Shown here: positions 5,248 to 56,734 of the stretch, piece after piece | Position numbering within the stretch: position 1 is the first letter of the stretch | How the letters are laid out: each line of letters starts with the position of its first letter | Assembly (NCBI GenBank): GCA_965263035.1 | Contig: OZ253580.1 | Coordinates: forward strand, 4,256,001-4,320,000 | Source: Acidobacteriota bacterium | GTDB taxonomy: Bacteria; Acidobacteriota; UBA6911; RPQK01; JAJDTT01 | DNA length: 64,000 bases | Reading direction: 5' to 3' | The notes under the pieces: generated by a model | What the model was told of the DNA's origin: nothing | The model's database searches: none | Seen by the model: the letters and a program-made list of their open reading frames with translations, nothing else | Translations under genes and position numbers: made by a program

Positions 5248-5297
5248 GAGCGGCGATTTCCAGTCGCCGAACAGGAGCAGCGATTTCCAATCGCCGA
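5248..5297. repeat. Tandem pair of REP-like palindromes (GGAGCGGCGATTTCCA.TCGCCG)
   Basis: Two imperfect hairpin units between the PQQ gene and the esterase. The homologous pair at 8079-8109/9660-9680 carries the IS110. Confidence 0.7.
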
Positions 5298-5304
5298 CCT
5301 CCCC

Positions 5305-7341
5305 ATGAACGGTAACCCGACAAGTCTCATGAACTCGTCCTCACAACAAATGCCGAGTCTCCGCAATTCCGTCTTGAAGATCTGCCTCTGCCTGCCCTGG
5401 ATGCTCTTCTTGCAGGCCCAGAGCACCAGCCGCCAGCTCACCCCCCTTCTGGAACGGGAAACCCTGGAACCGGGGTTGCTTCATCATCTGCTCGGCGAAT
5501 ACCTGCTGTCGCGATCTCCACAATTGCCGCCACTCCCCAGCCGTCCCGAAGAGTGGACGGCCCAGGTGAACGACATCCGCAGGAAGCTACTCCGGGAGGT
5601 GGTCTATCACGGCTGGCCCCAGGAATGGGTTAATGCACCCCTTCGTTTCCGAGAGGTGGGAGCCCCCCAGCAACAGCGAGGATACCGCCTCCGCAAGCTC
5701 CTGTTGCAGGTCTTGCCCGGCCTCCAGATCCCGGCACTGCTCTACGAACCGACGGGAGACCGGAGTTCCTTGCCGGCGGTCCTCAACGTGAACGGCCACG
5801 TCCGAGGCCCCGGCAAGTCCGTCGAGTACAAGCAGAAAAGGTGCATCAGCCTGGCCCGCCGCGGCGTGCTGGCGCTGAATCTGGAATGGCTGGCCTGCGG
5901 CGAGCTGTCCCATCCCGAGAACCAGCACTGGTTCGGCGCTCATCTGGACCTGGTGGGAGCCAACGCCATCGGACTCTTCTACCTGGCCATGCGGAAGGGG
6001 CTCGACTACCTGGAACAGCATCCCCGGGCCGATCCTAAGCGCTTGGCCGTCACCGGACTCTCGGGCGGCGGTTGGCAGACCATCATCCTCTCCTCCCTGG
6101 ACGAGCGGGTCGCCGTGTCCGTTCCGGTGGCCGGCTACTCGGCCCTGATCTCGAGAGTCGAACGGCCGCAAGACACGGGGGACATCGAGCAGAACGCCAC
6201 CGACCTGCTCCGGGGTCAGGACTACTCGACGTTGACCGCCATGCGGGCGCCCAAGCCGACTCTGCTGATCTACAACGCCGAGGACGAATGCTGCTTCCGG
6301 GCTCCCTTGGTCAGGCCCTACATCTACGACGACGTCAAGCCCTTCTTTGGCCTCTTCGGAAAGGGAGACCATCTGGGCTGGCATGAAAACACCGACCCCT
6401 CGACCCACAACTATCAACTGGACAACCGGCTTCAAGCCTACCGGCATCTGTCCCGGCATTTCGGCCTCGGGGATTGGGACCGTGAGGATCCCGTCGATCG
6501 GGAGATCCAGAGCTATGAGGATCTGGTGGTCGGTCTCCCGGAGGACAACCTCACCATCCTGGGCGTGGCGCGCCAGTTGGCCGACAGGAAGCTGCGGGAA
6601 GCGGACCCGGAGGAAGGTCGGGCGGTCGAAGATGTCGAGGACCGCAGGGCAAGACTTCGATCGCTGGTGCGTTTCCAGCCGGTGGCAGTCAAGCATGGGT
6701 GGGCGCTCCACAACACCAAGAATCGGGGGGTGGAATCGTATTCCTATCGAGTTCACTTCAGCGACGGACTCGTTGCATCCGCCCTCTGGGGGAAGGGAAT
6801 CGCCACTGCGGAGGGCGCTCCAGCCTCGATCCTGCTTCTGGACGAGGGCAAGGCGAAGGCGGGCCAACGAGCCTCAGACCGGATCAACCGGGGGGAACAG
6901 GTGCTGGTGGCGGACCTGATCCTGACCGGGGAAGCGCAGCCCCGGAGGAGGAATGCGTCGGACTCCCACCGCTACGCCCAACTCCTGGCCACGGTGGGAG
7001 ACCGGCCGCTGGGGATACGGGCTTCGCATCTCCTGGCTCTGGCCGGATGGCTCAAGGACAATCACGCCGCGGCGGAGGTCCGGGTAGAAGCTCAGGGATT
7101 CCGGAGCCAAGTGGTGGCCCTGCTGAGCGCGGCGCTGGACCCCGCGGCCTTTTCGGAGGTCAGGGTCGAGAAGGGCATGAAAAGCCTGCGCCACCTACTG
7201 GCCAAACCGGTCCGCTACAGCGAGGCTCCGGAACTGTTCTGCCTGGGGCTCTTTCCTGAATTCGATCTGGAGCGCCTGGTTCTCTTGGCCCGACCCACCC
7301 CGGTGGATCAGCGCGTCGAATCATCGGATTCCGGAGATTGA
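5305..7341 (+). CDS. Secreted alpha/beta hydrolase (acetylxylan esterase-like), copy 1
   Basis: Nucleophile elbow GLSGGG, signal-like N-terminus; near-identical paralog at 9689-11725. Confidence 0.8.
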   Translation: MNGNPTSLMNSSSQQMPSLRNSVLKICLCLPWMLFLQAQSTSRQLTPLLERETLEPGLLHHLLGEYLLSRSPQLPPLPSRPEEWTAQVNDIRRKLLREVVYHGWPQEWVNAPLRFREVGAPQQQRGYRLRKLLLQVLPGLQIPALLYEPTGDRSSLPAVLNVNGHVRGPGKSVEYKQKRCISLARRGVLALNLEWLACGELSHPENQHWFGAHLDLVGANAIGLFYLAMRKGLDYLEQHPRADPKRLAVTGLSGGGWQTIILSSLDERVAVSVPVAGYSALISRVERPQDTGDIEQNATDLLRGQDYSTLTAMRAPKPTLLIYNAEDECCFRAPLVRPYIYDDVKPFFGLFGKGDHLGWHENTDPSTHNYQLDNRLQAYRHLSRHFGLGDWDREDPVDREIQSYEDLVVGLPEDNLTILGVARQLADRKLREADPEEGRAVEDVEDRRARLRSLVRFQPVAVKHGWALHNTKNRGVESYSYRVHFSDGLVASALWGKGIATAEGAPASILLLDEGKAKAGQRASDRINRGEQVLVADLILTGEAQPRRRNASDSHRYAQLLATVGDRPLGIRASHLLALAGWLKDNHAAAEVRVEAQGFRSQVVALLSAALDPAAFSEVRVEKGMKSLRHLLAKPVRYSEAPELFCLGLFPEFDLERLVLLARPTPVDQRVESSDSGD

Positions 7342-7759: not shown

Positions 7760-7984
7760 ATGTTCGACACGCTCACCGCTGCCGATCAACTTACCGCCGC
7801 CGGAATCGAGCCTCAACAGGCCAAAGCGATCGTGGCTGTCGTTCGCTCCAGTGAAGAGTCCGCCGTCACCCGGACCGAATTGGAAGCGGCGCTGGCCCAA
7901 CTGGAAACCGGGCTCTACAGGGCACTCCTCGTGCAGACTCTCACCATTGGCGGGTTGGTCGTCGCCTTGCCCAAGCTTCTGTGA
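7760..7984 (+). CDS. Small DUF1640/CCDC90-like coiled-coil membrane protein
   Basis: RBS GAGGAG; FDT...L..AG...QA.AI N-terminus, coiled coil, C-terminal TM helix. Confidence 0.75.
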   Translation: MFDTLTAADQLTAAGIEPQQAKAIVAVVRSSEESAVTRTELEAALAQLETGLYRALLVQTLTIGGLVVALPKLL

Positions 7985-7994
7985 ACGTGACCGC

Positions 7995-8019
7995 AGAGAA
8001 GGTGACTGTCCCCTTCTCA
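7995..8019 (+). repeat. 25-bp hairpin repeat R2
   Basis: AGAGAAGGTGACTGTCCCCTTCTCA, exact copy. Confidence 0.9.
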
Positions 8020-8025
8020 AGTCCG

Positions 8026-8109
8026 CCTCGGGACCGAGTCCAAGCTCGCCGCATTGTCGGTACACTGATGAATCCGGTGGAGCGGCGATTTCCAATCGCC
8101 GAACAGGAG
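8026..8109 (+). pseudogene. Diverged duplicate of the PQQ-dehydrogenase 3' end plus downstream REP
   Basis: CCTCGGGACCGAGTCCAAGCTC...CCGGTGGAGCGGCGATTTCCA.TCGCCGAACAGGAG matches about 5194-5277. Confidence 0.85.
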
Positions 8110-8531
8110 TATCCATGTTGCAAGTGGTGGGTGCTAATCGGTGTTTCCATCCCGTGTCGTTAGTACGTGATCTGTCCGGTCCAAAGGGCACAGGGTTAGG
8201 AGGAGCGTTCTTCCGCCGGAGGTGAGGCGGAGATCGAGCTGGATCCGCCGGGCGCCGTGCAGGGGGCGATGAGTGGACCGATAACTGGATCGAGGGGCCT
8301 GAGATCGTCGACGTCAGTCCTCCGGGAGGTCCGGATACGCCCTGGGGAGCGCCGGGTCAAGCCTCCGGCTCCTCCGCTTCGCTGCGCCCCTTCGGGTGAC
8401 CCGGCGCTCCCCAGGGCGTGAAGAGCTTTCATGGCCGTAAGCAAGCTTCCGGCCAGACTTGACCGGAAGTTCGACAGACGGCCATCAGGGGGTCCACACG
8501 CTCCCTTTCCTCACGGGGTCTCTCCGTGGCC

Positions 8532-9479
8532 TCAGAAGGTCGCTCGGGGCGCTACGGGCAACCAGGTGCGGTCCTGCCGGACGAGGGTGTTGGCCAGGAC
8601 GATGAGCTTGCGCATGACGGCGACGAGGGCCACCTTGCCGGGCTTGCCGCGCTCGCTCAGCCTCCGGTACACCTCGGCCAAGTCGGGGTTCCAGCGCAGG
8701 GCGGCCACCGCCGGCATGTACAGGAGCCGTCGCGCCCGCGCCCGTCCGCCCCGGATGAAGGCCCGGCCCTGCCAAGTCCCCGACTCGCGCGGAACGGCGG
8801 CCAACCCGGCCAGACTGGCGGCGGCCTTGCCGCTGAGGGCGCCCAGCTCGGGCATCTCGGCCAGCAGACCGGCGGCGGTGGTGGCCGCGATCCCCGGGAT
8901 GGAGGTGAGGATCTCCAACTTGCGGGCCCGCGCCTCGTCGGCCGCAATCAGCTGCTGCAATTTGCGGTCGATGGCGCGCAGGTGGCGCTCGAACATGTTG
9001 ATCTGGATCTGGTTCTGCTGTTTGAGCAGGGGTTCGCGGAGCTGTCGGCGGCGGTTGAGCGCGGCCGTGCGCTGGCGCATCAGCGCGTCCCGGGACGTCT
9101 GCAGATCCTGGAGCCGGCGTTGCGTTTTGGACGGCACCTGGGTCCGGCGCGGCTCCAGCGTGGCGGCCAGCTGGGCCAGTTTCCGAGCGTCTACGGCGTC
9201 GGTCTTGGCGCGGCTCCCGGTCGCCCGGGCGAAACACCGGGCCTGCCAGGGGTTCACCTTGGCCAACGGCAGCTTCGCTTTGGACAGCGCTTCCTCGAGG
9301 TCCCGGTGGTAGGGACCGGTGGCCTCGTACGCGACGCACTCGACCGGAGTTCCGATCCAATCAATCAGCGCCCGGAAGCCGGCCGGGTCATTGTCGAACT
9401 GGGCGGAATGGCCGTCGGCCAGCCGGTGCGCGTCCAGGTGCGCTTTCGAGATGTCGATGCCTACGGTATGCTGTTTCAT
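8532..9479 (-). CDS. IS110 family transposase/recombinase
   Basis: DEDD RuvC-like residues GIDISK, YEATG, KTDAVDA; SIPGI and RESG (catalytic Ser) in the Tnp domain; RKL near the C-terminus. Confidence 0.95.
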   Translation of the reverse strand: MKQHTVGIDISKAHLDAHRLADGHSAQFDNDPAGFRALIDWIGTPVECVAYEATGPYHRDLEEALSKAKLPLAKVNPWQARCFARATGSRAKTDAVDARKLAQLAATLEPRRTQVPSKTQRRLQDLQTSRDALMRQRTAALNRRRQLREPLLKQQNQIQINMFERHLRAIDRKLQQLIAADEARARKLEILTSIPGIAATTAAGLLAEMPELGALSGKAAASLAGLAAVPRESGTWQGRAFIRGGRARARRLLYMPAVAALRWNPDLAEVYRRLSERGKPGKVALVAVMRKLIVLANTLVRQDRTWLPVAPRATF

Positions 9480-9645
9480 CTTTCCTGTCTCCTGTGCTTG
9501 TCATTCGGGCCTTGATGCCCTCGTATCCATTCAGGACATCGGGAAAGACGGTGGCCGACCTCACTCCCATACGGTTCGTAACAGTCCGCGGCGGTACGGT
9601 CCAGCCACCGCCGTCCGGGTCGCTCATGAGCGACCCGGACGGCCC
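9480..9645 (-). ncRNA. Predicted IS110 bridge RNA
   Basis: 5' perfect 34-nt palindrome (9610-9643). Target loop carries ACCGCCGC and GGGAG; donor loop carries ATGGATAC and GACAAG. These match the flanking target and the element ends. Confidence 0.85.
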
Positions 9646-9688
9646 CATTTAAACAGACAAGCGGCGGTTTCCAGCCGCCGACCTCCCC

Positions 9689-11725
9689 ATGAACGGTAAC
9701 CCGACAAGTCTCATGAATACGTCCTCACAACAAATGCCGAGACTCCCCTATACCGTCCTGAAGATCTGCCTCTGTCTGTCCTGGATGATCGTCCTGCAGG
9801 CCCAGAGCACCAGCCGTCAGCTCACGCCCCTTTTGGAACGGGAAACCCTGGAGCCGGGGTTGCTTCATCACCTGCTCGGAGAATACCTGCTGTCCCGTTC
9901 TCCACAATTGCCTCCACTCCCCAACCGTGCGGAAGAATGGACAGCTCAAGCAAACGACACCCGACGGAAGCTGCTCCGGGACGTCGTCTATCGCGGCTGG
10001 CCCGGGGACTGGGTGGAAGCCCCGCTCCGTTTCCGTGAGGTCGGTCCGCCGCAAGAACACCGCGGCTACCGCCTCCGAAAGCTCCTGCTGCAAATCTTGC
10101 CCGGCCTCCAGATCCCAGCACTCCTCTACGAACCGACGGGAGACCGGCGTCCCCTGCCGGCGGTTCTGAATGTGAACGGCCACGTCCGAGGCCCCGGCAA
10201 GTCCGTCGAGTACAAGCAGAAAAGGTGCATCAGCCTGGCCCGCCGCGGCGTGCTGGCGCTGAATCTGGAATGGCTGGCCTGCGGCGAGCTGTCCCATCCC
10301 GAGAACCAGCACTGGTTCGGCGCTCATCTGGACCTGGTGGGAGCCAACGCCATCGGACTCTTCTACCTGGCCATGCGCAAGGGGCTCGACTACCTGGAGC
10401 GGCATCCCCGGGCCGATCCCAAGCGTCTGGCCGTCACCGGACTCTCGGGCGGCGGTTGGCAGACCATCATCCTCTCCTCCCTGGATGAGCGGGTGGCGGT
10501 GGCCGTGCCGGTGGCCGGCTACTCCGCCCTGATCTCGAGAGTCGAACGGCCGCAGGACACGGGGGACATCGAGCAGAACGCCACCGACCTGCTCCGGGGT
10601 CAGGACTACTCGACGTTGACCGCCATGCGGGCGCCCAAGCCGACTCTGCTGATCTACAACGCCGAGGACGAATGCTGCTTCCGGGCTCCCTTGGTCCGGC
10701 CCTACATCTACGACGACGTCAAGCCCTTCTTTGGCCTCTTCGGAAAGGGAGACCATCTGGGCTGGCATGAAAACACCGACCCCTCGACCCACAACTATCA
10801 ACTGGACAACCGGCTTCAAGCCTACCGGCATCTGTCCCGGCATTTTGTCCTCGGGCCCTGGGACCGGGAGGATCCCGTCGATCGGGAGATTCAGAGCTAT
10901 GAGGATTTGGTGGTCGGTCTCCCGGAGGACAATCTCACCATCCTGGGAGTGGCGCGCCAGTTGGCCGACAGGAAGCTGCGGGAAGCGGACCCGGAGGAAG
11001 GTCGGGCGGTCGAAGACCTCGAGGACCGCAGGGCAAGACTTCGATCGCTGGTGCGTTTCCAGCCGGTGGCAGTCAAGCATGGGTGGGCGCTCCACAACAC
11101 CAAGAATCGGGGGGTGGAATCGTATTCTTATCGAATCCACTTCAGCGACGGACTCGTTGCATCCGCTCTCTGGGGGAAGGGAATCGCCACTGGGGACGGG
11201 GCTCCAGCCTCGATCCTGCTTCTGGACGAGGGCAAGGCGAAGGCGGGCCAACGAGCCTCGGACCGGATCAACCGGGGGGAGCAGGTGCTGGTGGTGGACC
11301 TGATTTTGACCGGGGAAGCGCAGCCCCGGAGGAGGAACGCGTCGGACTCCCACCGCTACGCCCAACTCCTGGCCACGGTGGGGGACCGCCCGCTGGGCAT
11401 TCGAACTTCACATCTGTTGGCCCTGGCCAAATGGCTCAAAGACCATCGCGCCGCGCCGGAGGTCCGAGTCGAAGCCCAGGGTTTCCGGAGCCAGGTCGTG
11501 GCCCTGCTCGGCGCAGCGCTCGAACCCACGGCCTTTTCGGAGGTCAGGGTCGAGATGGGCATGAAGAGCCTAAGCCACCTGCTGGCCAAGCCGGTCCGCT
11601 ACAGCGAGGCTCCGGAACTGTTCTGTCTCGGGCTGTTTCCTGAGTTCGATATGGAGCGCCTGGTTCTCTTGGCCCGGCCCACCCCGGTGGAGCAGCGCTT
11701 CCAGGCGGAGAATTCCGGAGATTGA
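9689..11725 (+). CDS. Secreted alpha/beta hydrolase (acetylxylan esterase-like), copy 2
   Basis: GLSGGG; paralog of 5305-7341. Confidence 0.8.
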   Translation: MNGNPTSLMNTSSQQMPRLPYTVLKICLCLSWMIVLQAQSTSRQLTPLLERETLEPGLLHHLLGEYLLSRSPQLPPLPNRAEEWTAQANDTRRKLLRDVVYRGWPGDWVEAPLRFREVGPPQEHRGYRLRKLLLQILPGLQIPALLYEPTGDRRPLPAVLNVNGHVRGPGKSVEYKQKRCISLARRGVLALNLEWLACGELSHPENQHWFGAHLDLVGANAIGLFYLAMRKGLDYLERHPRADPKRLAVTGLSGGGWQTIILSSLDERVAVAVPVAGYSALISRVERPQDTGDIEQNATDLLRGQDYSTLTAMRAPKPTLLIYNAEDECCFRAPLVRPYIYDDVKPFFGLFGKGDHLGWHENTDPSTHNYQLDNRLQAYRHLSRHFVLGPWDREDPVDREIQSYEDLVVGLPEDNLTILGVARQLADRKLREADPEEGRAVEDLEDRRARLRSLVRFQPVAVKHGWALHNTKNRGVESYSYRIHFSDGLVASALWGKGIATGDGAPASILLLDEGKAKAGQRASDRINRGEQVLVVDLILTGEAQPRRRNASDSHRYAQLLATVGDRPLGIRTSHLLALAKWLKDHRAAPEVRVEAQGFRSQVVALLGAALEPTAFSEVRVEMGMKSLSHLLAKPVRYSEAPELFCLGLFPEFDMERLVLLARPTPVEQRFQAENSGD

Positions 11726-55790: not shown

Positions 55791-56734
55791 CCCACCAGGT
55801 CCTTGTAACGCAGCCACTTCCCGTTCATCCGGCCGATGACGTGAGCCATCTGGTCCAGCGTGTCCTTGTTTCTCATGTTGTGACGGCCTGCAAACTCCCC
55901 GATGTAGCGGTGAAGATGCGCTCTGGAAATCTTGTGGAAAGTTCCAGTGTGCGCCCTTTTGAGCATCGACCAGAACGACTCGACGCCATTGGTGTGAACC
56001 GGACCCCTGACGAATTCCAGGGCTGAATGACGGACCGTTTCATGGTTCTTCAGAGAAGAATATGGGCGGGCGTCATCCGTGTAAACCGTCGTTCCAAGCT
56101 GCGTGTTGTCCAGCACGTAACCCTGGAGGGTCTTGGCCGTTGTGTCCTCGACAACCTGGGCCCGGACCTCGTTGGTCTGCCGGTCCTTGAGTCCCACAAC
56201 CGCCGTTTTGCCCACCGGCCCGCGTCCCGTCAGTTGCTTCCGTTTCTGGTTGCTCATATTCCGACGCTTGCCACCGAAATACGATTCGTCCGCCTCGACC
56301 GGGCCGAAGAATCGGATCGTCGGGTCGTCGTTCCAGGTCTCCCGAATCCGGTGAATCAGGTGCCATGCCGACTTCTGAGTGATGCCAAGATCACGATGCA
56401 GTTTCATACTGGAGACACCCTTCAGGTGAGTCGAGACGACATAGATGGCATAGAGCCAGCTCCGGCACCCAAGTTTGGAGCAAGCCATGGGCGTCCCGGT
56501 CTTGACGCTGAACCACTTACCGCACTCCTTTTCACGGCAGCGATAAGGCATCGTCCGGTGCTTGGTCTGGGTCTGAACGTTGACCGATCCGCAACGGGCG
56601 CAGCAGACCTCATCGGGCCACCGCTTCTTCGCGACCCATGCTTCTGCCGCCTTGTCGTTCGGGAACTTGGCAAAGAACTGACTCACCGAGAGTCCCTGAC
56701 GGAAGTGCTTTCCAGGTGCCTTATGTCTTTTCAT
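55787..56734 (-). CDS. IS1595 family transposase
   Basis: Zn ribbon CxxC...CxxxxC, VEADESYFGG, YTDD, HTNGVESFWS.LKR. Confidence 0.95.
   Translation of the reverse strand: MKRHKAPGKHFRQGLSVSQFFAKFPNDKAAEAWVAKKRWPDEVCCARCGSVNVQTQTKHRTMPYRCREKECGKWFSVKTGTPMACSKLGCRSWLYAIYVVSTHLKGVSSMKLHRDLGITQKSAWHLIHRIRETWNDDPTIRFFGPVEADESYFGGKRRNMSNQKRKQLTGRGPVGKTAVVGLKDRQTNEVRAQVVEDTTAKTLQGYVLDNTQLGTTVYTDDARPYSSLKNHETVRHSALEFVRGPVHTNGVESFWSMLKRAHTGTFHKISRAHLHRYIGEFAGRHNMRNKDTLDQMAHVIGRMNGKWLRYKDLVG

Follow-up and report, generated by a model that had tools for sequence, protein, structure and literature searches.

A compact IS110-group insertion sequence with a probable bridge RNA at a REP-like palindrome of an Acidobacteriota genome

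The window analysed here is a stretch of 64,000 nucleotides from the genome of an Acidobacteriota bacterium (contig OZ253580.1, positions 4,256,001 to 4,320,000), which carries an IS110-group insertion sequence (IS) on its minus strand. The element spans positions 8108–9661 of the window with both of its CT cores (9661–9660 and 8109–8108) and measures 1552 bp counting one core. It comprises a left end of 180 nt with a predicted noncoding RNA (ncRNA), the gene for a recombinase of 315 residues (8532–9479, minus strand), and a right end of 422 nt (8110–8531), and it is seated between hairpins of the host that resemble repetitive extragenic palindromes (REPs). The element is very probably a complete IS that moves by bridge-RNA-guided recombination, as IS621 of E. 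coli does. The anatomy of the element, the pattern of its genomic copies, the covariation within the RNA, the covariation between guides and targets, and the conservation of the catalytic residues are established here and carry this reading.

Read on the minus strand, the left junction is GGAAACCGCCG-CT-TGTCTGTTTAAAT, with the core at 9661–9660, and the right junction is TTGCAACATGGATA-CT-CCTGTTCGG, with the core at 8109–8108. The boundaries of the element are fixed independently, because similarity among the 13 copies in the genome stops exactly at these CTs: it starts at CG-CT-TGTCTGTTTAAAT in every copy and ends at ATGGATA-CT in all 12 copies that possess a right end. The CT core flanks the insertion on both sides, with no longer target duplication, at 13/13 left and 12/12 right junctions, the left core is also conserved at the junctions of orthologues, and empty sites hold a single CT. 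The left terminus of the element is the right donor (RD) TGTC (9656–9659), the complement of its guide, and a CT-TGT(C/A)T left terminus is conserved among orthologues; the right terminus is the left donor (LD) ATGGATA (8110–8116), as read from the junction and the copies. On the host side, junction reading and copy comparison place the REP-like hairpin CGGCGG-CTGGAAA-CCGCCG at 9662–9680 (minus strand), and the left target (LT) ACCGCCG (9668–9662) is its 3' arm with one base of the loop. The right flank (8076–8107, minus strand) begins with the right target (RT) CC(TGTTC), which is followed by a second REP-like hairpin, as judged from the junction and from an uninterrupted paralogous site. The reconstructed target is thus ACCGCCG-CT-CC, and the donor, or circle, junction is ATGGATA-CT-TGTC. 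Both had been proposed in a preliminary description of this DNA and are borne out by the junctions, the 13 copies, and the paralogous site; the interval 8108–9680 given there does hold the element, but its last 19 nt belong to the host flank (the REP hairpin, 9680–9662).

The recombinase shows the domain order of the IS110 family, with Pfam matches to DEDD_Tnp_IS110 (PF01548; residues 6–147, 4.8e-22, 78.8 bits against a cut-off of 29) and Transposase_20 (PF02371; residues 189–272, 4.6e-19, 69 bits against a cut-off of 21.3). Its only matches among solved structures in a phmmer search are the recombinases of ISCro4 (9t56, E 8e-36) and IS621 (8wt6, E 1.6e-32). The DEDD residues D9, E52, D94, and D97 and the serine S233, followed by G234, align to D11, E60, D102, D105, and S241–G242 of IS621, so that all five catalytic positions of IS621 are conserved. 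Mutating D11, E60, D102, D105, or S241 abolishes recombination by IS621 (PMC11208158). The protein family is large: of 8000 candidates examined, 2405 proteins match at E 0.001 or better, and many of these are 55–95% identical. Two further open reading frames (ORFs) in the element are rejected as genes: an 86-residue ORF (9388–9648, minus strand) overlaps the covarying stems of the ncRNA, and an 82-residue ORF (8196–8444, minus strand) is broken by a 76-nt indel in three copies.

The ncRNA of the left end extends from about 9646 to 9484 on the minus strand and is predicted to form a 5' hairpin followed by two internal loops. For the 181 nt between 9660 and 9480, the predicted minimum free energy is −88 kcal/mol (z = −5.54), and none of 200 shuffled sequences is equally stable. 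The 5' stem-loop, with a 12-bp stem and an ATGA loop, lies at 9613–9640 and is present in all 13 copies. A consensus structure was computed by RNAalifold from a MAFFT alignment in which the region was represented by six variant copies and five orthologues. In it, a long base stem (9616–9598 with 9560–9543) surrounds a large internal loop that would hold both target guides (target-binding loop, 9543–9616), and a second base stem, formed by TCCTG at 9536–9532 with CAGGA at 9494–9490 and by 9542–9541 with 9485–9484, encloses a donor-binding loop (9484–9542) that would hold the left donor guide, a 4-bp distal stem, and the right donor guide. The distal stem, GGGC at 9520–9517 with GCCC at 9510–9507, is supported by the consensus and by covariation. 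A single-sequence minimum-free-energy fold that places the left donor guide in a hairpin loop, with GATGTCCT pairing with AGGGCATC, was rejected for this covariation-supported internal loop.

The same alignment was used to build a covariance model, R1, as Rfam 15 holds no matching family. R1 finds the ncRNA in 13/13 genomic copies, always in the left end. In orthologues with protein identities as low as about 35%, it locates the RNA immediately upstream of the IS110-type gene at E 0.0012 or better, with matches at 13/16 orthologue loci in one set and at 15/15 in another. Among 17 sequences matched by R1, 91.4% of the alignment cells are paired and 20 of 28 base pairs show changes on both sides. 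In helices 1–3 of the target loop, 15 of 17 pairs show double changes and pairing amounts to 78–94%; in the donor loop, the distal stem shows a G–C to A–U double change, and the base stem shows U–A replaced by C–G or G–C. No shuffle out of 500 reaches any of the observed values, and slid partners give 30–48% paired cells. The 17-sequence alignment was fitted to R1 and is biased towards the structure, but 6 pairs with double changes are already present in the independent MAFFT alignment.

All four guides can be read in this ncRNA at the minus-strand positions where the preliminary description had placed them. The left target guide (LTG) ACCGCCGC (9588–9595) is identical over 8 nt to the LT together with the core's first base, and the left donor guide (LDG) ATGGATAC (9523–9530) is likewise identical over 8 nt to the right end's LD extended by the first core base. 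The right donor guide (RDG) GACAAG (9497–9502) is complementary over 6 nt to CT-TGTC at the left end. The right target guide (RTG) had been read as GGGAG (9568–9564), but is probably longer, ATGGGAG (9564–9570), as judged from its contiguous match to CTCCCAT; it is complementary to CT-CC in the copy of the window, hereafter c0, and to CT-CCCAT in copies c3 and c4. The 5' guides are therefore 8 nt long and the 3' guides 4–7 nt, spanning the CT core, against published lengths of 8–9 nt and 4–7 nt, respectively (PMC11208160). In a left end of 180 nt of matched composition, chance would supply 0.0054 occurrences of the LTG, 0.0017 of the LDG, and 0.055 of the RDG; GGAG alone is uninformative, as 1.6 occurrences are expected. 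Across all 15 elements with a complete loop, an exact 8-nt match to the LDG occurs once downstream of the ORF. The RDG match ranges from 4 to 8 nt. On inspection by eye, pairing is possible between U9563, on the 3' side of the RTG core pair, and A8110 of the donor, and between C9496, on the 3' side of the RDG core pair, and G9662 of the target, so the first position of the handshake rule given in PMC11208158 would fit in both loops. Of the earlier structural proposals, the 5' hairpin is present at 9640–9613 rather than at 9610–9643, and the suggested folding and covariance-model check yields the two-loop structure and a model, R1, that fits all copies, though no curated match.

The strongest evidence that these strings act as RNA guides is that they vary together with the host DNA outside the element. 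The genome is a single contig of 6,198,070 bp and contains 13 copies (92–100% identity) and one solo left-end stub, all bounded by CT; c12 lacks a right end, and the recombinase ORF is an intact 315 residues in 9/13 copies and broken or altered in the other four, those of c7 and c12 being broken at codon 30. The LT matches the LTG of its own copy at 8/8 positions in 12 of the 13 copies and at 7/8 in c3, so the check on other genomic copies that had been proposed turned up no unrelated targets. Ten copies carry the LTG ACCGCCGC, nine of them at ACCGCCG-CT and c3 at GCCGCCG-CT. The remaining three, c8, c9, and c11, carry ACCGACGC, with a C-to-A change, and are seated in ACCGACG-CT-CCCTA of a different repeat that has no REP hairpin. 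The LT variants of the whole genome differ in how often they are followed by an IS left end: 10 of 101 places for ACCGCCG, 1 of 103 for GCCGCCG, 0 of 80 for GTCGCCG, 0 of 28 for ATCGCCG, and 0 of 7 for ATCGCTG.

The same correspondence is found in close relatives, which are Acidobacteriota metagenome-assembled genomes (MAGs) with recombinases of 84–93% protein identity; their donor loop is unchanged, their LTG is different, and each LTG allele lies at a matching site. The LTG GTCGCCGC occurs at GTCGCCG in four elements, three matching at 8/8 positions and one at 7/8, CACGCCGC occurs at a CACGCCG site, and GACGCCGC occurs at a GACGCCG site in an element whose RTG also matches 8 nt of its right target. 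Over 14 elements, the contiguous matches to LT and RT were added up with the cores counted; the sum averages 12.4 nt for cognate and 5.9 nt for non-cognate combinations. These elements are what is left of the 17 R1 matches after two degenerate remnants and an element whose left end was not identified were set aside, and the rows are non-independent, four coming from this genome and several others from close kin, so that the difference is given without a formal test. The donor loop (ATGGATAC, GACAAG) is identical even in elements of Alphaproteobacteria MAGs with 40–44% protein identity, in which the target loop differs. This constancy of the donor loop beside a varying target loop fits the remark, in a figure legend of PMC11208160, that the second loop is the more conserved. 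One alphaproteobacterial MAG (L064–L110) contains dozens of copies of the 40–44% identical IS110 element, which shows an unusually high copy number and donor ends conserved across phyla.

On balance, we favour the view that this one genome records bridge-RNA reprogramming in progress, the IS lineage having split into target-loop alleles. A one-base change of the LTG (C to A) would have taken c8, c9, and c11 away from the REP hairpin and into an unrelated repeat with a matching site, and the RTG alleles would track REP sub-variants. The RTG of c6 matches its right target at 8/9 positions, and the c0-type RTG fits CT-CCCAT. The intact ACCGACGCTCCC string is present in two empty members of the repeat that hosts c8, c9, and c11. 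These three copies lie at 653129–654704, 3695500–3696997, and 1125851–1127345 of the genome (C1), with empty relatives of the repeat near 4173833 and 1954209, and for at least 40 nt to either side their flanks resemble one another. Within the reprogramming view, the RTG allele AAAAGCAG (GCAG), which is shared by c7, c10, and c12 and pairs with the core only, may have lost its pairing, and it coincides with two broken ORFs. If the view holds, the occupied and empty repeat variants would amount to natural data on mismatch tolerance for an unstudied bridge recombinase.

The target itself is, to judge from its sequence context, a REP-like palindrome, as for IS621, whose natural target ATCAGGCCTAC lies within REP elements (PMC11208160); this had been anticipated and holds at the scale of the genome. 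There are 91 free ACCGCCGCTCC sites against about 12 expected from composition, and 66 of the 91 form the 3' arm of a GGCGG-N5-9-CCGCC hairpin, with the GGCGG stem partner 5–9 nt upstream; about 209 generic repeats of this form occur in the genome, often in tandem. The region upstream of a paralogous gene in the window carries the same double REP uninterrupted, reading ATCGCTG-CT-CCTGTTC, against ACCGCCG-CT-[IS]-CCTGTTC at the occupied site. This empty site (ATCGCTG-CT-CC, 5274–5284, minus strand) had been put forward as an internal control for the guide; it is indeed empty and mismatched at positions 2 and 6 of the LT, but it is a weak control because the 91 perfect ACCGCCGCTCC sites are equally empty. 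An orthologous empty site was sought in sister genomes, where the neighbouring gene has matches in 8/8 relatives of the genus; their upstream REP regions are unalignable, which leaves the paralogous site of the window as the only one usable.

By homology to IS621, the element would excise as a circle in which the joined ends bring together a −35-like hexamer of the right end and a −10-like hexamer of the left end, and an ncRNA of about 160 nt would be produced and bound by the 315-residue DEDD/Ser recombinase. In the first loop, the LTG ACCGCCGC and the RTG (AT)GGGAG can be seen in the sequence to fit the host repeat ACCGCCG-CT-CC(CAT), and in the second loop, the LDG ATGGATAC and the RDG GACAAG likewise fit the circle junction ATGGATA-CT-TGTC. 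Strand exchange at the common CT core would then insert the element and leave a CT on both sides. The candidate −35 hexamer is TTGCAA (8118–8123, minus strand), read from the junction, and the candidate −10 hexamer is TTAAAT (9647–9652, minus strand); the two would be separated by a spacer of 17 nt, and the promoter would be complete only in the circle. A promoter scan finds no promoter-like site in the integrated element, and by eye a TTGAC(A/T)-like hexamer stands at the same distance from the core in orthologues.

Contigs covering the stretch of the window come from public runs belonging to 8 studies, of which four are registered as metatranscriptomes; such contigs give no transcript ends, strand, or level, and RNA libraries can contain DNA. 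In the size-fractionated RNA run X19, the summed contig depth is 525–1337 over 9508–9641 and about 15 over the ORF, while the same depth ratio is about 3.6 in X1 and X3, the two best runs, which are probably DNA; the depth in X19 is at most a weak hint of ncRNA expression. Several contigs lose their match beyond 9555, within the variable target loop, which fits a community of elements with a common donor loop and differing target guides. A joint of 8100 to 9660 in contigs of X1 and X3 was rejected as an excision product, as only 22 nt lie on its shorter side and 4 unmatched letters lie between; it is most likely a REP-to-REP adjacency from elsewhere. The target REP hairpin together with the T-rich start of the IS (CTTGTCTGTTT, 9660–9680, minus strand) scores as intrinsic-terminator-like and lies directly upstream of the bridge RNA, and it is a matter of speculation that it shields the integrated element from read-through transcription.

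Several observations weigh against this reading of the element or of its history. In c0, the RTG forms Watson–Crick pairs with CTCC only, and its fifth position sets G opposite T, so that the complementarity across the core originally claimed for GGGAG comes to CTCC plus a G·T pair, whereas the 8-nt matches of the LTG and LDG and the 6-nt match of the RDG stand. The GCAG allele of c7 and c10 matches only the CT core of their sites, and the right flank of c10 is not REP-like. As c8, c9, and c11 share one repeat family, a single insertion may be the ancestor of all three. At 422 nt against 180 nt for the left end, the right end is the longer of the two, whereas PMC11208160 gives the opposite as the rule for the IS110 group; this is because of about 350 nt of noncoding cargo that is absent from the orthologues of the same-genus genomes G088 and G200, whose right end is about 100 nt, and the length relation is a statistical trait of the group that lies outside the mechanism. 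A permissive search of 7800–9900 against Rfam 15 returns no bridge-RNA match, only four sub-threshold chance matches to microRNA or snoRNA families, so that no curated family confirms the membership of the ncRNA. The junction promoter, TTGCAA-17-TTAAAT, is weak, with 8/12 consensus positions, no A at position 2 of the −10 hexamer, and a score below the scan criteria, although the consensus of the host may differ. The circle-junction string has no match in the assembly, which is expected and uninformative; the RNA run X17 has no cover over 9441–9900, which is not taken as evidence; and as the RNA data consist of contigs only, there is no direct evidence of the transcript, its ends, or its strand.

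These observations leave room for two other explanations. In one, the left end would act only as DNA or as a structured 5' untranslated region, the guide-like strings being sub-terminal repeats bound by the transposase or a leader for translational control, and the protein itself would read the REP hairpin. The transcript is not demonstrated, the donor loop overlaps the ribosome-binding site AGGAGA, and the LDG and RDG by definition repeat the element's own ends; moreover, 66 of the 91 free target sites are hairpins, and a target stem-loop is reported to help recognition by ISPpu10 (10.64898/2026.03.19.712850). A protein-only reader, however, would not predict that both target guides, the LTG and the RTG, change in step with the host DNA beyond the element, with five LTG alleles each at its own site; and c8, c9, and c11 are seated at a site lacking the REP hairpin. 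The stems are kept by compensatory changes, and the solved homologues, related at 1e-32 to 1e-36, use RNA, which makes this explanation extremely unlikely.

It is also very unlikely, on our estimate, that the family uses bridge RNAs while c0 itself is immobile, its poor RTG fit meaning that it was perhaps placed, or is movable, only through the RNAs of sister copies in trans. The same RNA forms 4 contiguous RTG–RT pairs in c0 and 7 in c3 and c4, four of the 13 copies combine a broken or altered ORF with intact ends, and action of the bridge RNA in trans is reported for IS621 (PMC11208160). Yet c0 retains the intact ORF, the catalytic residues, the guides, and the ends, and IS621 functions with a 4-bp RTG–RT pairing according to the same source. 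The left-end ncRNA is, moreover, identical in six copies (c0–c5), which makes action in cis and in trans indistinguishable. Bridge-RNA-guided recombination by a complete element therefore stands as the preferred explanation, and the IS621 architecture recognized in the preliminary description is upheld by the Pfam domains, the IS621 and ISCro4 matches, the catalytic residues, the two-loop ncRNA with its covariation, and the guide–target covariation.

The likeness to IS621, which has a 177-nt bridge RNA, extends to the DEDD RuvC-like domain and the transposase domain with a catalytic serine, the left-end ncRNA, in which a 5' stem-loop precedes a target loop and a donor loop, the 8-nt 5' guides that equal the top strand and the 3' guides complementary across a CT core, the 11-bp target of 7+2+2 layout inside REP elements (IS621: ATCAGGCCTAC), and, as candidates here, the −35 and −10 hexamers of the right and left ends (PMC11208160, PMC11208158). 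In contrast, the protein is distant (phmmer E 1.6e-32 over residues 3–299) and shorter (315 residues, against 328 in the solved chain of IS621), the guides and the target (ACCGCCG-CT-CC) are different, the host is an Acidobacteriota bacterium, the right end exceeds the left end through its cargo of about 350 nt, and the junction promoter is weaker. The best solved homologue, the ISCro4/IS622-type recombinase (9t56; E 8e-36, residues 3–299), has the same domain order and catalytic motifs, but is an engineered genome-editing orthologue from another host (10.1101/2025.05.14.653916). ISPpu9 and ISPpu10 of Pseudomonas putida are, by description, also multi-copy IS110 elements inserted beside a repetitive extragenic palindrome stem (PMC12288879, 10.64898/2026.03.19.712850), and ISPpu9 carries extra noncoding material, the gene of the small RNA Ssr9, downstream of its transposase (PMC12288879); the present element departs from them in that Rfam has nothing matching its right-end cargo and 3/13 of its copies lie at a site without a REP hairpin. 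IS1111 elements with their seekRNA belong to the same recombinase family and follow the same RNA-guided logic, but their RNA lies in the right end and they have long sub-terminal inverted repeats (PMC11208160), whereas the ncRNA here lies in the left end in 13/13 copies; the right end of the present element yielded no bridge-like structure, though no systematic search for sub-terminal inverted repeats was made.

Expanded IS110 loci have been described that gain noncoding DNA stepwise beside the transposase module and duplicate partial modules in tandem (10.64898/2026.08.14.744561); the additions seen here resemble them, but are small (0.35–0.6 kb) and noncoding, with no cargo genes. In the orthologues of G088 (L032, L048: 741–1340) and G200 (L033: 678–1340; all in the orientation of the element), the left end measures about 760 nt, and about 600 nt separate its terminus, CT-TGTCTGTT, from the functional bridge RNA downstream. 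Within this additional DNA are what looks like a fossil second bridge RNA, a degenerate segment scoring 44.6 and 46.3 bits with R1 and containing the LDG-like string ATGGAGAC, and a fossil junction resembling that of right and left ends, TTGCAA...GGAGA-CT-CAG, immediately before the functional RNA. This left end looks like a decayed tandem dimer that is now mobile as one unit.

The cargo of the present element, about 350 nt within 8180–8500 (minus strand), follows the recombinase stop codon and precedes the last 70 nt or so of the right end, which are conserved. It is found in the copies of this genome and in two related MAGs (L054–L060), contains nested inverted repeats, resembles other places in the genome piecewise at 71–84% identity, and has no match in the same permissive Rfam 15 search of 7800–9900. 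Nested within it is a near-perfect palindrome of about 76 nt with 23-bp arms (8345–8420, minus strand), which is present in 9 of the 12 copies that have a right end and absent from c9, c10, and c11. Three to four solo palindromes occur elsewhere (C1 near 1959698, 2981641, and 4205342, and in part at 55895), and one contig of an RNA run skips exactly 76 nt at this position; the palindrome looks like a small mobile or recombining palindromic repeat. A solo right-end fragment (C1, 4205113–4205524; 252 nt, 99% identity) lies beside an inverted palindrome and right-end-like pieces, and the solo left-end stub of about 27 nt (C1, 5976163–5976208) is seated in an ACCGCCG-CT REP site; both are remnants of rearranged or deleted copies.

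The genes around the element are a tandem pair of paralogues of 678 residues at 5305–7341 and 9689–11725 (plus strand), about 90% identical in nucleotide sequence, and the IS precedes the start codon of the second by 28 nt and may alter the expression of that gene. No neighbouring gene matches a Pfam family above the cut-off, and the tandem pair shows only a sub-threshold glucuronyl-esterase-like match; by eye, a GLSGGG motif in these proteins suggests a serine hydrolase.

The mechanistic hallmarks of the IS110 group that are readable from sequence are all present, with only the length relation of the ends departing from the group and with a weak junction promoter. The element is a real and ordinary bridge-RNA IS110, a clean and fresh example of a mechanism already known. 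The mechanism, the targeting of REPs, and the guide–target covariation of orthologues are already published, so a specialist would expect the finding. The novelty claimed for a natural pair of a 315-residue recombinase and a bridge RNA of different specificity is genuine but modest, as such pairs underlie the published covariation analysis, and the element family may already be among the predicted orthologues in its supplementary tables (PMC11208160); a limited literature search found no relevant work joining Acidobacteriota and bridge RNA. What is added is a compact recombinase/RNA pair from Acidobacteriota, the guides, core, target repeat, and natural guide variants of which are defined in sequence. 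The added value lies in the set of natural guide alleles in a single genome, which are ready specificity controls for a recombination assay.

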